A stretch of DNA of 32,000 bases. It comes from Nostoc punctiforme PCC 73102 (GTDB taxonomy: Bacteria > Cyanobacteriota > Cyanobacteriia > Cyanobacteriales > Nostocaceae). The notes under the pieces were generated by a model. It ran no database searches. It was not told where the DNA came from and saw only the letters and a list, made by a program, of their open reading frames with translations. This document shows, one piece after another, positions 20,429 through 31,452 of the stretch. The first letter of the stretch is position 1; each line of letters opens with the position of its first letter. Location: positions 6,390,001-6,422,000 of the forward strand of contig NC_010628.1 in the NCBI RefSeq assembly GCF_000020025.1, in the 5' to 3' direction. Made by a program: the position numbers and the translations under genes.

Positions 20429-20770
20429 TTAACTTTGGTAGGGGCGCGGCAGTTGGCGCAGTTGATGAGCAGTATCCAATTCACTATTGTTTTTTCTGCC
20501 ATACCCCCAACCCAAGATGCGACGATATTCACCCATGATGCCACTTTCAATTAAATCATCCTCATTGACTGCAACATTGGTATGAGATTGGGGCGCAACA
20601 TAGAGTGCATCCGCAGGACAATAAGCCTCACACATGAAACAAGTTTGACAGTCTTCTTGTCGAGCGATCGCAGGTGGTTGGTTAGGTACGGACTCAAAGA
20701 CATTGGTAGGACATACTTGGACGCACACATTGCAATTGATACAGAGTTTATGGCTGACAAGCTCGATCAT
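20429..20770 (-). CDS. 2x[4Fe-4S] ferredoxin-type protein
   Basis: I prefer the ATG at 20770 (MIELVSHKLCINCNVCVQVCP...), giving 113 aa. Two CxxCxxCxxxCP motifs are present (CINCNVCVQVCP and CQTCFMCEAYCP). It lies 13 nt downstream of the flavoprotein remnant on the same strand. Confidence 0.8.
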   Translation of the reverse strand: MIELVSHKLCINCNVCVQVCPTNVFESVPNQPPAIARQEDCQTCFMCEAYCPADALYVAPQSHTNVAVNEDDLIESGIMGEYRRILGWGYGRKNNSELDTAHQLRQLPRPYQS

Positions 20771-20783
20771 GATACTGCTCCTG

Positions 20784-22283
20784 CTACAACTTTGATACAG
20801 AGGGTGTGATTTGAGTGGTTGGTACTGGTGATGTAGCGATGGCGTTCTGCTCGTCGTAGGCGATCGCATCCGTTAGCCAATCACGCCTCACCCATAGACG
20901 ATCTAAGCCGCCGGTTGCCTGATAATAACGCTGATTTGGATCGGTTTCGGGATAGTCCATGCGAATATGTTCGCTGCGGGTTTCCGTGCGATGTAAAGCA
21001 CTAAAATATGCCCATCGCGCTACAGCCGTGAGAGCAGCCGCTCGCCGAGAAAATTCCACATCGCGCACTGTATCTTGTTTCGGGTTCGTCTTTACCTGCT
21101 GCCACAACGTTTCTAATTTGGCCAGGGAATCCAAAAGTCCTTGCTCACAGCGCAAGTAATTCTTCTCTAAGGGGAACATCTGCGCTTGTACACCGCGCAT
21201 GATCGCTTCGCTATCGAATGTTTCAGATGTGGGAAACTGTGATGGGCTACGCAATCCGGCTTGACCAGCAGGATGCACCACCCGTTCATGAGCATGAGTG
21301 CCCAGACTTTTCGCAAAAGCTGCTGCACCAACTCCTGCCCATTGTCCTGTGGAGATTGCCCAGGCAGCATTGGGACCACCACCCCCAGAAGCTAAACCTG
21401 CTAAAAACTCCCGCGATGCAGCATCACCGGCGGCGTAGAGTCCAGGAACCTTTGTACCACAACTATCATTCACAATCCGAATTCCACCCGTACCACGGAC
21501 TGTACCTTCTAAAATCAGTGTTACAGGTACTCGTTCTGTATAGGGGTCAATGCCAGCTTTTTTATAGGGTAAAAAAGATATGAAATGAGACTTTTCAATC
21601 ACCGCCTTGACTTCAGGTGTAGCTCGATCCAAACGGGCATAAACGGAGCCTTTCAGGAGGGCATTGGGAAGAAACGATGGATCGCGACGACCATTGACAT
21701 AGCCACCAAGATCGTTGCCTACTTCATCGCTGTAACTAGCCCAGCCAAAGGGAACACCTCTTGTCACCGTGGCATTAAAAGCGGTCGAGATGGCATAGTG
21801 ATTAGAAGCTTCCATACTGGAGAGTTCACCGCCAGCTTCTACTGCCATTAGCATTCCATCACCTATATTTGTATTGCACCCTAATGCTTTACTCAAGAAT
21901 GCACAACCACCATTAGCCAGGACTACTGCACCAGCGCGAACAGTATAGGTACGATGATTTTGTCTCTGCACACCTCTTGCTCCAGCCACTGAGCCGTCAT
22001 CAGCCAATAAAAGCTCTAGAGCAGGACTTTGGTCAAGAATCTGAACCCCAACACGCAATAGGTTCTTACGAAGTACCCGCATATATTCAGGGCCATAATA
22101 ACTCTGGCGCACAGATTCCCCATTTTCTTTGGGAAAACGATAGCCCCACTTTTCAACTAGAGGCAAACTGAGCCAAGTTTTTTCAATGACACGCTCGATC
22201 CAACGTAAGTTAGCTAGGTTTTTTCCTGCGCGATAACGCTCCCATAAAACTTTGTCCCAATTCTCTTCGGAATCGGGTTTGGG
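20784..22283 (-). pseudogene. FAD-dependent oxidoreductase (SdhA/FrdA/AprA-like flavoprotein), 5'-truncated
   Basis: The reading frame is open from 22283 (PKPDSEENWDKVLWERYRAGKNLANLRWIERVIEKTW...) and has no ATG or GTG before the TTG at 22166. The N-terminal dinucleotide-binding GxGxxG segment expected in this family is absent. The sequence upstream of 22284 is AT-rich non-coding. The rest looks intact (AVVLANGGCAF, GLYAAGDAAS). Confidence 0.65.
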
Positions 22284-27860: not shown

Positions 27861-29087
27861 ATGGATTTATTAGAGTATCAAGTTAAAGAATGGTTTGGGA
27901 AGATAGGCATTCCGGTCTTGCCCTCCCAACGGATTGACCATCCTACAGATTTGAAACGTTTAAAAATTCGCTTTCCGATTGTACTGAAATCTCAAGTACA
28001 TGGAGCAGAGCGGGCAAAAGCGGGTGGAGTCAGGTTTGCCGAAACGACAATTGATGCGATCGCAGCTGCTCAAAATATTTTTAGTCTACCAATATGGGGC
28101 GAATTGCCAGAAGTGGTGCTGGCAGAATCCCAATACGACGCGAACCAAGAATTTTATTTAGCGGTAGTGTTAGATACTGCTGTCTGCCGACCAGTACTTT
28201 TAGGTTGTAAAGAAGCAGACATCGATTGGGAATCTGCTGGGGAAAAAATGCATCATGTTGTTGTGGAACAGGAATTTTCACCATTTTATGCCCGAAGACT
28301 GGCTTTGAAAATGGGTTTACAAGGGACGCTGATGCAGTCGGTAAGCAGCGTTTTGGAGAAGATGTACCATTTATTTGTGCAAAAAGACCTGGATTTAGTC
28401 GAAATAAATCCCTTGGCAGTTAGTGCTAATGGTCAAGTTATGGCTCTCAATGGTAAAGTCAGGATCAATGAACGGGCAATCAAGCGTCATCCAGACCTAG
28501 CTGAGATGGCAGCAAAAATTATCAGCCGTCATACCAGTACTGAAATTAATGGTATTTTAGGTGACTGGGATGGTGTGAAAATGCACGGTAAAATCGGTAT
28601 TTTAGGTAATGGGACTGGTTCAGTGATGGCAACTTTGGATTTAGTCGCCAATGCTGGTGGCAATCCAGGTGTTTGTTTAAATCTACGTCATGCTTTCCTC
28701 ACAGATACGACACCAACTACCTTCCGCGATCGCCTAGAGACAGGTCTGAAAATCCTGGAAGCTGACAAAGGCATTCAAGTAATACTAATAAACTTCCTGG
28801 GTAGCATTCCTCAAACAGAGGAAGTGGTTAAAGTTATAGCCAGAGTTGTACAGCAAGACAACAGCGAACTTGAATCACAAGTTGTACGTTCTAATGGTAG
28901 TAAAAGTCGTCAAGTACAGAATTTTACACCCTTAGTTATCCGTCTTGCTGGTTCTGAATTTAATGCTGCTAGAAAATATCTAGCAACACTAAAAACCCAC
29001 AGCGATGCGCTACTCGTGGTAGAAAATTTAGATGAGGCAGTGGCGGCAGCAGTTCGTCTTGCTAAACCAACTGCTAATAAAAAGTAG
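27861..29087 (+). CDS. sucC: Succinate--CoA ligase beta-subunit-like protein (ATP-grasp), divergent
   Basis: I prefer the ATG at 27861 (MDLLEYQVKEWFGKIGIPV...) over the GTG at 27840. ATP-grasp landmarks VLKSQV, KAGGV and LVEINPL are present. The C-terminal ligase-CoA motifs are degenerate (see finding). Confidence 0.8.
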   Translation: MDLLEYQVKEWFGKIGIPVLPSQRIDHPTDLKRLKIRFPIVLKSQVHGAERAKAGGVRFAETTIDAIAAAQNIFSLPIWGELPEVVLAESQYDANQEFYLAVVLDTAVCRPVLLGCKEADIDWESAGEKMHHVVVEQEFSPFYARRLALKMGLQGTLMQSVSSVLEKMYHLFVQKDLDLVEINPLAVSANGQVMALNGKVRINERAIKRHPDLAEMAAKIISRHTSTEINGILGDWDGVKMHGKIGILGNGTGSVMATLDLVANAGGNPGVCLNLRHAFLTDTTPTTFRDRLETGLKILEADKGIQVILINFLGSIPQTEEVVKVIARVVQQDNSELESQVVRSNGSKSRQVQNFTPLVIRLAGSEFNAARKYLATLKTHSDALLVVENLDEAVAAAVRLAKPTANKK

Positions 29088-29144
29088 TGACTGTGATTTT
29101 GCTCCAAATCAAAAATTATTAATTTTTACCACGTAAATATATTG

Positions 29145-29327
29145 TTGGGAATTGGGCATTAGGCATTGGGCATAGAGAAGAGACAAGGGAGACAAGGAAG
29201 AGGGGGGAGACAAGAGAGAGACTTGTTCAATAATTCCCCCTTGTCCCCCTTGTCCCCCTTGTCTTCCTTGTCTTCCTGCCTCCCCTGCTCCCCCTGCTCC
29301 CTGCTCCCTACCCCCTATCCCTCACCT
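29145..29327. repeat. Purine-arm/pyrimidine-arm hairpin element, copy C (longest)
   Basis: Heptamers TTGGGAA/TTGGGCA/TTAGGCA/TTGGGCA, then the 44-mer at 29177-29220 identical to copy A. CTTGTCCCCC x3 and CTTGTCTTCC x2 follow, then a CCTGCTCCC-type tract. It lies between sucC and sucD. Confidence 0.85.
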
Positions 29328-29370
29328 AGTGGCTTAATTCACTGGGTTGTCAAACTTACGGTAATTTTTT

Positions 29371-30258
29371 ATGAACCTAACGCCAGAAAGTAAAGTACTA
29401 ATTCAAGGCTTTTGTGAATTTATATCAGGCACTCATGTTGCTCAAATGCAAGCTTATGGTACGAATTTGGTAGCAGGTGTCAATCCGGGATGTGGCGGAC
29501 AGGAACTACATGGACTGCCAGTATTTGACTTAGTAGAGGAGGTAATAGAACAATTTGGGGTAATTGACACAACGATTATCTGTGTAGATCCTTACGACGT
29601 GCTAGATGCTGCATTAGAAGCGATCGCATCTCATATTAGCCAGATCATTATTATCACTGCCGGCGTGCCACCTTTGGATATGGTGCAATTACTCCGCAAA
29701 GCCGAAGCCTGTGAAACTTTGGTAATCGGGCCTAACAGTCCGGGGATCATTGTGCCGGGAAAAATTCTTTTAGGCACTCAACCTAGTGAGTTTTATACTC
29801 CTGGGGTAGTGGGAATCGTTAGTCGTAGCAGTACTCTCACCTACGAAGTTGCTTACGAATTAACAAAAGCAGGTTTGGGGCAGTCGATTAGTGTCAGTAT
29901 TGGTAGTGATGCGATCGTTGGTTCCTCCTTTCTCCAATGGTTGCAAATTCTGGATGAGGATGAAACTACAGAGGCGATCGTTTTAGTCGGTCAACCAGGT
30001 GGTGGTAGTGAAGAAGCAGCAGCCCGGTATATTGCTGAGGCAATTGATAAACCAGTAATTGCCTACATTGCAGGTAGACAAGCGCCACCAGGAAAAAGTT
30101 GGCGGCAAACAGGGACTTTAGCAACGGTTATCGGACGCGATCCTAACTTTGGCACAGCCCAAAGTAAATTAGCTGCTTTAAAAGAAGCAGAAGTTCCAGT
30201 AGCTGAACGCCCTTCTCAGATTCCAGAATTATTGAGAAAGGAAATTAAAATTAATTAA
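29371..30258 (+). CDS. sucD: Succinate--CoA ligase alpha-subunit-like protein, lacking the GHAGA phosphohistidine loop
   Basis: 295-aa ORF. SucD landmarks YGTNLVAGVNPGCGG, GLPVFD, GPNSPG, VGIVSRSSTLTYE and KPVIAYIAG..APPGK are present. The loop reads KSWRQTGTLATVI where KRMGHAGAII is expected. Confidence 0.8.
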   Translation: MNLTPESKVLIQGFCEFISGTHVAQMQAYGTNLVAGVNPGCGGQELHGLPVFDLVEEVIEQFGVIDTTIICVDPYDVLDAALEAIASHISQIIIITAGVPPLDMVQLLRKAEACETLVIGPNSPGIIVPGKILLGTQPSEFYTPGVVGIVSRSSTLTYEVAYELTKAGLGQSISVSIGSDAIVGSSFLQWLQILDEDETTEAIVLVGQPGGGSEEAAARYIAEAIDKPVIAYIAGRQAPPGKSWRQTGTLATVIGRDPNFGTAQSKLAALKEAEVPVAERPSQIPELLRKEIKIN

Positions 30259-30267
30259 TTAATTAAT
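30250..30267. repeat. 18-nt perfect palindrome ATTAATTAATTAATTAAT containing both convergent stop codons
   Basis: The centre of symmetry lies between 30258 and 30259. The sucD-like gene ends ATT AAT TAA on the plus strand and the kinase-like gene ends ATT AAT TAA on the minus strand. Confidence 0.9.
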
Positions 30268-31452
30268 TACAAAAAGCGAAGGAAGCAATAATCTGGCTTC
30301 GTCTGCCAATTCTAATCCATGAGTAATAGCGATCGCTCTTGATGTGATAATCTCGTCAAAAGTTCGCCCAAAGCGCTGCTCAAGCCAGCTATGACGAGAT
30401 TCGTTTTGCACTAGCTTTAACAGCCTCCCTGCGATTAGACCAAAATGAAGTGCCGCTAAAGCAGCATAAGTAAAGCGCACAATACGTTCATCTCCATTCC
30501 ACCCAGCAGAACGTAACCCCGTTAAGTAACCCTCAAGCACAAGTTTTTCCAAGGGTATCAGTGATGAACCATTGACGAACAATAAGAAAACGCTGTCCAG
30601 CACCAAATTTATAATGTCTTCTCCCAGAACACCATAGCCAACAAAAGACCAATCGATGAGAACAGTCTGGTCATTGCCATCTGGGTTATGTCGAGAAAAC
30701 AAGTTGTTGGGCGTAATATCAAAGTGGCAGAGTGTATGGGGTGCTTTGTCCACAGCATCGAGGAGGATATGGCGATCGCTCCACAAGTCCATCACGCGAT
30801 CGCCGATATCTGGGGAAAATATCTCTTTTAGCAGAGGGTGCTGCCATACAGCAGGTTCTCGCCACGCTTCTAATGCAGTATTATCGATATTTGACACCCA
30901 TGCTCGATGCCAGCCACGACTCAGCCAAGGCTCATAAGGCAATGATTGTGCCATTACATAGCTTCCTTGTAAATAACCAAGGTGACGAGCCGCTAAACCA
31001 AAGCGCTCCATAGTCCAAGTGCTACCAGAACTACCCTGAATATCCTCCAGCCACAGCCAGACGACATTAGCAGATGGCTCTGTAATCCCGAAGCAACGGG
31101 GGGCTACTAAGTCGCCAGTCAGATTATCGAGCATTCCTGATGTATATATCAACGCCTCACGTTGCCAGTAATTCCAGTGTGTGGGGTCTTGAGAAGAATT
31201 GAAAATAGAGCCAGCATTTTCTGGTTGTAAGTGCAAAATTTTCAGAATTACCGACCAAGATAATTGTTCGCTGCCATTGTTAGCAATACCAGTAATGCGC
31301 TGCAAACCGGCTGTAACGTTATTAATAATATGGTGGGCGATCGCTTCGGAGTGCCATTCGCCCAGAGTGGCAGTTTTACTGTCGAGTATATGACAGACAA
31401 CGATCGTTAATGTCGCCTCATCAATTAGCGGATGCGCGGTAGGTAAATTCAT
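30259..31452 (-). CDS. Phosphotransferase-family protein (APH/choline-kinase-like fold)
   Basis: 397-aa ORF. Catalytic-loop motif HFDITPNNLF (HxDxxxxN) and the metal-binding segment LIDWSFVGYGVLGEDI (the DxD/DWS type). Confidence 0.75.
   Translation of the reverse strand: MNLPTAHPLIDEATLTIVVCHILDSKTATLGEWHSEAIAHHIINNVTAGLQRITGIANNGSEQLSWSVILKILHLQPENAGSIFNSSQDPTHWNYWQREALIYTSGMLDNLTGDLVAPRCFGITEPSANVVWLWLEDIQGSSGSTWTMERFGLAARHLGYLQGSYVMAQSLPYEPWLSRGWHRAWVSNIDNTALEAWREPAVWQHPLLKEIFSPDIGDRVMDLWSDRHILLDAVDKAPHTLCHFDITPNNLFSRHNPDGNDQTVLIDWSFVGYGVLGEDIINLVLDSVFLLFVNGSSLIPLEKLVLEGYLTGLRSAGWNGDERIVRFTYAALAALHFGLIAGRLLKLVQNESRHSWLEQRFGRTFDEIITSRAIAITHGLELADEARLLLPSLFVIN

Follow-up and report, generated by a model that had tools for sequence, protein, structure and literature searches.

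The window analyzed here is a stretch of 32,000 nucleotides (nt) from Nostoc punctiforme PCC 73102 (contig NC_010628.1, positions 6,390,001 to 6,422,000, forward strand). It contains two neighboring genes that resemble sucC and sucD, the genes for the beta and alpha subunits of succinyl-coenzyme A (succinyl-CoA) synthetase (SCS). An earlier, sequence-only reading described them as a SucC/SucD-like pair whose alpha subunit lacks the loop that carries the phosphorylated histidine. We found that a catalytically degenerate SCS maintained by selection is real and lineage-wide. It is also undescribed in the literature that could be searched, in which we found no paper describing a missing His in a cyanobacterial SucD.

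The gene pair and its predicted fold

Both open reading frames (ORFs) run without frameshift, as the sequence-only reading had stated, and every motif string quoted in it is found in the translations (Table 1). The ORF listing begins the beta gene at an in-frame upstream GTG (27840), which would give 415 amino acids (aa), and the product of the ATG at 27861 matches residue 1 of SucC models and structures in alignments. In Pfam, the alpha protein matched CoA_binding with 68 bits and Ligase_CoA with 48 bits. The beta protein matched ATP-grasp_2 with 103 bits, and its match to Ligase_CoA (16.6 bits) was under the cut-off of 24.5. Against the curated NCBIfam equivalogs for SucC (NF001913 and TIGR01016), beta scored 220 and 202 bits and did not reach the cut-offs of 370 and 376; against those for SucD (NF004230 and TIGR01019), alpha scored 283 and 284 bits and did not reach 336 and 353. 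Despite these scores, the NCBIfam models cover both proteins end to end. The low equivalog scores fit the database names of many orthologues, which read merely "CoA-binding protein," "ATP-grasp domain-containing protein," or "ATPase."

The alpha protein aligned over its full length with solved SucD chains at 37 to 43% identity (HMMER; E values from 1e-68 to 1e-52), and both subunits aligned with chains of SCS, citryl-CoA synthetase, ATP-citrate lyase, ACD, and FdrA. The pair has the five-subdomain architecture of the ACD superfamily (CoA-binding, two CoA-ligase subdomains, and ATP-grasp), and Pfam gave no additional domain or GNAT fusion on either ORF. An AlphaFold2 model of alpha had a pLDDT of 88 and a pTM of 0.86 and superposed on E. 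coli, Thermus, and mammalian SucD structures with TM scores of 0.87 to 0.95 (Foldseek), so that the alpha fold is predicted to be retained. The sole low-confidence stretch of this model, residues 242 to 254, is the former phosphohistidine loop. The structure prediction for beta was weak (pLDDT, 49.7), probably due to a shallow alignment, with low confidence at residues 336 to 353. The alpha gene is 100% identical to the copy in Nostoc sp. UCD121, and there are at least 80 near-identical Nostoc loci.

Table 1. Positions of the genes, altered sites, and neighboring features (window coordinates unless a locus is named)
Feature	Position	Strand	Basis or remark
sucC-like gene (beta-like subunit)	27861..29087	+	408 aa from ATG 27861; start MDLLEYQ
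GAERAK, degenerate ATP-grasp phosphate loop GGRGK	28002..28019	+	alignment
EINPL, with kept Glu197β and Asn199β equivalents	28401..28415	+	120/120 beta clusters
Asn197 codon, site of Mg2+-ligand Asp213β (LDGK to LNGK)	28449..28451	+	alignment
CLNLRHAF, in place of NFLDVGGGA in beta C-terminal domain	28674..28697	+	alignment
24-aa insertion QDNSELESQVVRSNGSKSRQVQNF, beta C-terminal domain	28854..28925	+	alignment
sucC-sucD spacer, 283 nt	29088..29370	+	long hairpin of tandem 9-mers
Spacer 9-mer array GAGACAAGG x4	29180-29219		
Spacer 9-mer array TCCCCCTTG x4	29235-29272		
sucD-like gene (alpha-like subunit)	29371..30258	+	ORF, 295 aa
Ala97 codon, site of Glu97α (ITEGIP to ITAGVP; human Glu105α)	29659..29661	+	alignment
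Gln208 codon, site of Glu208α (GEIGG to GQPGG)	29992..29994	+	HMMER alignment
Gln246 codon, site of phosphohistidine (E. coli His246α)	30106..30108	+	HMMER alignment
Divergent 616-aa ORF, no family match, one predicted membrane segment	25448..27298	-	Pfam, NCBIfam
616-aa ORF homologues	L086 2062-3933; L088 1556-3355; L085 1596-3113	-	E 1e-41 to 0 across all six
616-aa ORF homologues	L084 2075-3736; L090 1083-2750; L091 1809-3524	-	locus coordinates
SDR gene	L081 3767-4681; L084 3735-4640; L085 3654-4562; L090 2740-3657; L092 2467-3381	same as sucC	

Missing catalytic residues, their spread, and their origin

In SCS, His246α accepts the phosphate at the ATP-grasp site and carries it ∼35 Å to the CoA/succinate site. 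In the Nostoc alpha, KSWRQTGT aligns with KRMGHAGA of SucD, which places Gln246 at the position of the His in a loop reading W244-R-Q-T-G-T-L250, in agreement with the claim of a His-less loop. That reading had itself named a shifted loop alignment as the way in which it could be wrong. This objection fails, because the only His residues of alpha are those at positions 22, 47, and 88; the stretch from 89 to 295 has none, and no shift of the alignment is able to restore one. The Gln at the site of Glu208α was likewise confirmed, with GQPGG opposite GEIGG. A further substitution, not on the earlier list, is Ala at the site of Glu97α. The corresponding E105Qα mutant of the human enzyme is reportedly ∼100-fold less active. 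PDB entries 7msr and 7mst are E105Qα mutants according to their titles. The literature searched contained nothing usable on H246D or H246N mutants, on succinyl-CoA arsenolysis, or on E105Qα kinetics. The CoA-binding motifs of alpha are also altered (GxxGxxG to GxxExxS, Lys42 to Cys, and VPP to VDP), and the GxxGxxG and Lys42 alterations are present too in relatives that retain the His.

All of the changes that had been reported for beta were seen in our alignments: GAERAK and LNGK in the ATP-grasp half, VCLNLRHAF for NFLDVGGGA and NFLGSI for NIFGGI in the C-terminal half, and an insertion of ∼24 aa. The replacement motif occurs as CLNLRHA[FYLS] in nearly all Nostocales betas and contains a conserved Arg-His. 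The insertion is present in all cyanobacterial betas, with variable length (shortest in a partner of a His-type alpha), and its sequence is poorly conserved among Nostocales clusters. The Nostoc pair keeps Lys46β and both power-helix N-termini (SRSSTL and GNGTGS), two phosphate-binding helix ends that are conserved in Nostocales as SRS(S/T)TL and GNG(T/A)GS.

To describe the spread of these substitutions, we used 120 clusters of Nostocales alphas (clustered at 90% identity and 80 to 97% identical to the Nostoc alpha) and 120 clusters of betas from a Nostocales-dominated profile search, 116 of them from Nostocales. The His site is occupied by Gln in 115 of the 120 alpha clusters, by Pro in 3, and by Glu in 2, while the Glu208 site is Gln in every one. 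None has Glu at the Glu97α site, where Ala, Gly, Pro, and Ser interchange freely. Three positions of the new loop are nearly invariant (W244, 100%; G248, 99%; L250, 98%), and 43 of the 120 alphas have a His three residues N-terminal of the lost site, which is absent in the Nostoc alpha under study. On the beta side, the Mg-ligand Asp is Asn in 116/116 Nostocales betas, together with a loop of the G[AG]ERAK type; the four clusters with Asp are exactly those that also have GGRGK/R. The alphas of Anabaena/Nostoc PCC 7120 (P0405, BAB75612.1; KTWRQTGTL and GQPGGG) and Anabaena variabilis ATCC 29413 (P0406) are both of the Gln type.

The sequence-only reading had left open whether the divergence is uniform across cyanobacteria, and it is not: Nostocales have Gln, most others have Asp or Asn, and a minority have His and Glu. 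When 1.84 billion representatives (clustered at 50% identity) were searched exhaustively for alpha homologues, the nearest His-less SucD-like proteins formed one large fast-evolving clade, with canonical His- and Glu-containing SucD outside it. A profile built from 33 His-less representatives retrieved 119 cyanobacterial sequences from many orders, with Asp (56), Asn (45), His (17), or Ser (1) at the His site. The His and Glu208α sites covary in cyanobacteria (His with Glu, 15; Asp with Gln, 50; Asn with Gln, 39), and Glu97α is retained in 11 of the 17 His types, 2 of the 56 Asp types, and 1 of the 45 Asn types. The residue at the His site differs among lineages (Q, D, N, E, P, and K), a variety that speaks against any new catalytic role of that residue common to them all. 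A phospho-Asp intermediate is conceivable for the Asp types but was rejected as a general explanation, being inapplicable to the Gln type of Nostoc and to the Asn types.

Separately, seven SucD-like sequences outside the cyanobacterial clade (P0194, P0198, P0217, P0232, P0246, P0260, and P0171) have Tyr, Arg, Gln, Phe, or Thr at the His site. Some of them also lack Glu208. In the tree, all seven lie dispersed between sequences with the canonical His and Glu. Sequence errors could account for them, or else further His-less forms may have arisen independently in phyla other than cyanobacteria.

Not all of the differences from SCS accompany the loss of the His. The altered CoA motif (QGIxEPLGxxY), the loss of Lys42α, the beta C-terminal motifs, and the beta insertion are clade-wide and include members that keep His and Glu (loci L081, L083, and L089), and therefore they cannot be read as inactivating. 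They suggest instead that the whole cyanobacterial subfamily had, judging from its motifs, already diverged from textbook SCS, perhaps with respect to the acid that it uses. Changes at Glu208α and Glu97α track the loss of His in all His-less lineages. Those at Asp213β and GGRGK do so in Nostocales only; in betas paired with an Asp- or Asn-type alpha, both are kept (with GGRGR in the Asn type). The Nostoc pair, in which site I and site II (the ATP-grasp) are both disabled, is therefore the most degenerate form. The earlier list of differences, taken as evidence of inactivation, therefore holds for His246α, Glu208α, Asp213β, and GGRGK but not for the CoA motif, NFLDVGGGA, NIFGGI, or the insertion.

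We built a neighbor-joining tree of the alphas with the loop and Glu208 regions masked (200 bootstraps; a distance tree without a species-tree check). Nostocales alphas were monophyletic in 100% of bootstraps. Their sister, with 99% support, was P0395, a cyanobacterial sequence from metagenomic data that shares 73% identity with the Nostoc alpha. P0395 has a loop related to that of Nostocales (KHWGHTGTL) and keeps His, Glu208, GGRGK, and LDGK. The Asp and Asn types formed a clade apart from Nostocales and P0395. With a His/Glu sequence as sister to Nostocales and a separate Asp/Asn clade, the catalytic His and Glu were lost at least twice, the exact number being uncertain.

Both genes are under strong purifying selection. 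Across 77 Nostoc loci, ω was 0.067 for alpha (median dS, 0.28) and 0.089 for beta (median dS, 0.38), and no frameshift or internal stop was found in either gene in the loci covering them. Between genera, ω ranged from 0.04 to 0.13, although dS is saturated there. These values and the intact ORFs bear out the claim that the pair is maintained and not decaying.

Gene neighborhood and spacer

Outside the genus Nostoc, 12 loci were examined, and the beta and alpha genes lie side by side in every one. Upstream and divergently oriented in the window is an ORF of 616 aa in which the predicted membrane segment is followed by a long helical region rich in Gln, Ala, and Lys. Homologues of 500 to 620 aa occupy the same position in six of the seven other His-less loci (Nostocales, Asn type, and Asp type) with 25 to 57% identity to the window copy, and none was found in the four His-retaining loci (L081, L083, L089, and L092). 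This link could reflect co-regulation, a partner protein, or plain synteny, and with a small sample of non-independent lineages it is a lead only.

In five of the eight non-Nostocales loci, comprising His, Asp, and Asn types, a gene for an SDR oxidoreductase (adh_short) of ∼300 aa lies directly upstream of sucC. These proteins are 59 to 63% identical among themselves and matched only generic oxidoreductase families, below cut-off. The arrangement gives a hint that a reductase acted in the same pathway as the ancestral SucCD-like enzyme of cyanobacteria. Neither the window nor the Nostoc loci contain the SDR gene, and the linkage fails in Nostocales.

The spacer between the two genes is filled from 29145 to 29309 with tandem repeats (TTGGGCA x4, the two 9-mer arrays, and CCCTGCT), and arrays of the GAGACAAGG and CCTTGTCTC types form its long hairpin. 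An RNA gene was rejected here, since the Rfam matches to miRNA precursors were below threshold and are caused by the generic repeat hairpin. Spacer length in Nostocales ranges from 130 nt (L086) to 590 nt (L088).

Downstream, the stop codon of the sucD-like gene (30256-30258) abuts a convergent ORF for a 397-aa APH-like phosphotransferase (30259-31452, - strand), which leaves no space for separate terminators, and an (AATT)5 repeat spans the junction (30256-30269). In two other loci, sucD is closely followed by a gene of the Iso_dh family (isocitrate/isopropylmalate dehydrogenase type, ∼360 aa): in the Gln-type locus of Mastigocladopsis (L087, 7714-8802) and in a His-type locus (L089, 7071-8153). 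It is absent from the window. Elsewhere in the window, the ORF at 20784-22166 (- strand) matched separated parts of L-aspartate oxidase/succinate dehydrogenase flavoprotein models (FAD_binding_2 positions 138 to 248 and Succ_DH_flav_C), far below cut-off, and a second ORF (20429-20869) overlaps its 3′ end. The region 20429-22166 (- strand) could represent a flavoprotein gene that has been split or frameshifted, or else a divergent family.

Retained function and comparison with known systems

With His246α, Glu208α, Glu97α, Asp213β, and GGRGK lost, the ATP- or GTP-coupled ligase cycle is blocked, and judging from these residues the Nostoc pair very probably cannot run the canonical nucleotide-coupled SCS cycle. 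The sequence-only reading had drawn this conclusion from the alpha loop, and it is supported by the His-less C-terminal domain, the selection on both genes, and the predicted retention of the fold. Our preferred explanation, to which we assign a probability of roughly 0.55, is that the two genes encode an SCS derivative disabled for catalysis (a "pseudo-SCS"), which is fixed in Nostocales and maintained by selection. As to what is maintained, a non-catalytic role in ligand binding, sensing, or scaffolding is an attractive candidate to which we would give slightly less than even odds. It is favored by the fixation of a different residue at the His site in each lineage, each with its own conserved loop, by the absence of all three acid/base residues of site I, and by the precedent of Pat/PatZ (PMC8556138). 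The complex would then be kept for a nucleotide-independent role. Its ligand might be succinyl-CoA or CoA, or an anion held at the conserved power-helix N-termini and the new W-R-Q loop; alternatively, the complex might act as a scaffold. Cyanobacteria lack 2-oxoglutarate dehydrogenase, and their biosynthetic need for succinyl-CoA is, to our knowledge, small; under these conditions catalysis would be dispensable.

The experimental record is mixed. According to Pearce et al. (1969), as cited in PMC2504344 and PMC3136707, Anabaena variabilis has neither 2-oxoglutarate dehydrogenase nor SCS activity, which agrees with the Gln-type alpha of A. variabilis ATCC 29413. In PCC 7120, deletion of sucCD suppressed the effects on cell shape and metabolites of an engineered module from propionyl-CoA to succinyl-CoA (PMC12508105), and the text consulted contains no enzyme assay or succinyl-CoA measurement. 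This result suggests that what becomes of succinyl-CoA in PCC 7120, or the effect that it has, depends in some way on the pair. In Synechococcus 7002 (residue type unspecified), a ΔsucCD strain had less succinate and malate and did not grow under high-CO2 sparging (PMC5160925). Reviews and engineering papers take cyanobacterial sucCD as a working, reversible SCS (PMC7133116 and PMC9855186).

Several points weigh against a disabled enzyme with a binding role. Read most simply, the PCC 7120 deletion points to conversion of succinyl-CoA to succinate by the pair in vivo. The 1969 enzymology of A. variabilis is quoted here second-hand, through later papers. Judged by its altered CoA motifs, even CoA binding by alpha is uncertain, and the putative ligand and binding partner are, on present sequence evidence, purely hypothetical. 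Further, our analysis covered the pair in the window, and a second, canonical sucCD elsewhere in the genome would be unseen.

The most serious competitor, which we regard as possible though improbable, is a cleavage of succinyl-CoA that is uncoupled from ATP, either through the site I half-reaction (succinyl-CoA + Pi → succinyl-phosphate + CoA) or by direct hydrolysis. Labile succinyl-phosphate would break down, the complex would serve as a drain for succinyl-CoA or a recycler of CoA, and the ATP-grasp, being dispensable, would decay. Of all the explanations, this one best fits the block of the engineered succinyl-CoA source by deletion of the Gln-type pair in PCC 7120, and the lowered succinate and malate of the Synechococcus 7002 mutant and the conserved phosphate-binding helix ends speak for it too. 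The decay of the ATP-grasp catalytic residues specifically in Nostocales is what a site-I-only function would predict. Yet site I itself has also lost Glu97α and Glu208α, the succinate-side motifs of beta (GGG and FGG) are replaced, and the genetics are indirect; nor is strong selection on the whole beta ATP-grasp (ω, 0.09; EINPL and Lys46 kept) obviously needed for such a reaction. Alternatively, the divergent cyanobacterial SCS-like subfamily may have given rise to a new enzyme with a different chemistry or substrate that uses the W-R-Q loop of alpha and the CLNLRH of beta. The non-canonical substrate motifs in the beta C-terminal domain, found clade-wide and also in His-retaining members, are compatible with this, as are the SDR gene upstream in non-Nostocales loci and the high conservation of the new motifs in Nostocales. 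We nevertheless consider it unlikely, given that the lineages have no common residue at the His site, that Nostocales lack both the SDR linkage and the Mg ligand of the ATP-grasp, and that the gene context points to no candidate reaction.

That the pair is an ordinary SCS, with the missing His an artefact of alignment, sequencing, or annotation or compensated by a nearby residue, would accord with the strong full-length homology and with the treatment of these genes in the literature. We think this very improbable in view of the complete absence of His from alpha 89-295 and the fixation of the substitutions across independent genomes (120 clusters for alpha and 116 for beta). The nearby His, three residues upstream, occurs in only a minority of the clusters and not in the Nostoc alpha, both proteins score under the curated equivalog cut-offs, and SCS activity is reported as absent in A. 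variabilis. Least probable is that the genes are decaying pseudogenes left by the loss of 2-oxoglutarate dehydrogenase. Several catalytic residues are indeed lost in both subunits, and the Glu97α site varies freely, as decay would predict; but the low ω, the absence of frameshifts and internal stops in 77 Nostoc loci, the 81 to 97% identity across Nostocales genera, and the adjacency of the pair in every locus examined all contradict it.

A broader and more doubtful extension of the pseudo-SCS explanation is that cyanobacterial "SucCD" is largely a pseudoenzyme family that dropped its ligase chemistry at least twice after 2-oxoglutarate dehydrogenase was lost and whose heterodimer became a metabolite-sensing or regulatory module. 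Such a module, sensing, for example, succinyl-CoA/CoA or phosphate status, may work with the divergent membrane protein. If true, it could explain the carbon phenotypes of sucCD deletions despite extracts without SCS activity. More generally, the SucCD reaction that is routinely drawn in cyanobacterial metabolic maps probably does not occur as assumed: the proteins of Nostocales, including PCC 7120, lack residues needed for the annotated reaction, and so do the alphas of most other cyanobacteria sampled. This reconciles the 1969 report of absent SCS activity in Anabaena with the later discovery of "sucCD" genes and means that the ΔsucCD phenotypes need to be read again. Sister lineages with and without the catalytic set also offer a natural experiment on enzyme repurposing under strong selection.

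Compared with SucCD of E. coli, Thermus, and pig/human (PDB 1jkj, 3ufx, and 2fp4), the Nostoc pair has the same two-gene beta-alpha arrangement, the same domains (CoA_binding and CoA-ligase in alpha and ATP-grasp_2 in beta), and the same Lys46β, Glu197β, Asn199β, and power-helix N-termini. It differs in alpha at His246α and Glu208α (both Gln) and Glu97α (Ala) and in beta at Asp213β (Asn), GGRGK (GAERAK), and the replaced GGG/FGG motifs, as well as in the 24-aa insertion. In addition, the Nostoc genes are 283 nt apart, whereas those of SucCD are closely coupled.

Closer to Nostoc, within the same cyanobacteria-specific subfamily, are the His/Glu-retaining pairs (P0395/L081, P0366/L083, and P0344/L089). 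These share with Nostoc the altered GxxGxxG (QGIxEPLGxxY), a variable Lys42α, the beta C-terminal motifs, and the beta insertion; unlike Nostoc, they keep MGHAG/GHTG, GE(I/P)GG, GGRGK, and LDGK. By their residues, they may still be active ligases and represent a natural "before" state. The Asp- and Asn-type alphas of Chroococcales/Gloeothece, Snowella, Coleofasciculus, and Leptolyngbyaceae resemble Nostoc in the loss of His246α, Glu208α (to Gln), and Glu97α, in gene pairing, and in the divergent upstream ORF. They differ from Nostoc in having Asp or Asn at the His site, within the loops FGDAATIIAxQLS and VGNASAIIAAQLS, in a beta that keeps GGRGK/R and the Mg-ligand Asp, and in their independent origin.

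Finally, the Pat/PatZ acetyltransferases contain an inactive, His-less acyl-CoA-synthetase-like domain that is kept for acyl-CoA binding, allostery, and oligomerization (PMC8556138). This module and the Nostoc pair belong to the same superfamily, lack the catalytic His, and retain the fold. The Pat/PatZ module is part of a single chain fused to a GNAT acetyltransferase, while the Nostoc pair is a free-standing pair of subunits with no fused effector. By analogy, the role of the Nostoc pair would resemble that of the Pat/PatZ regulatory domain, with acyl-CoA as its putative ligand.

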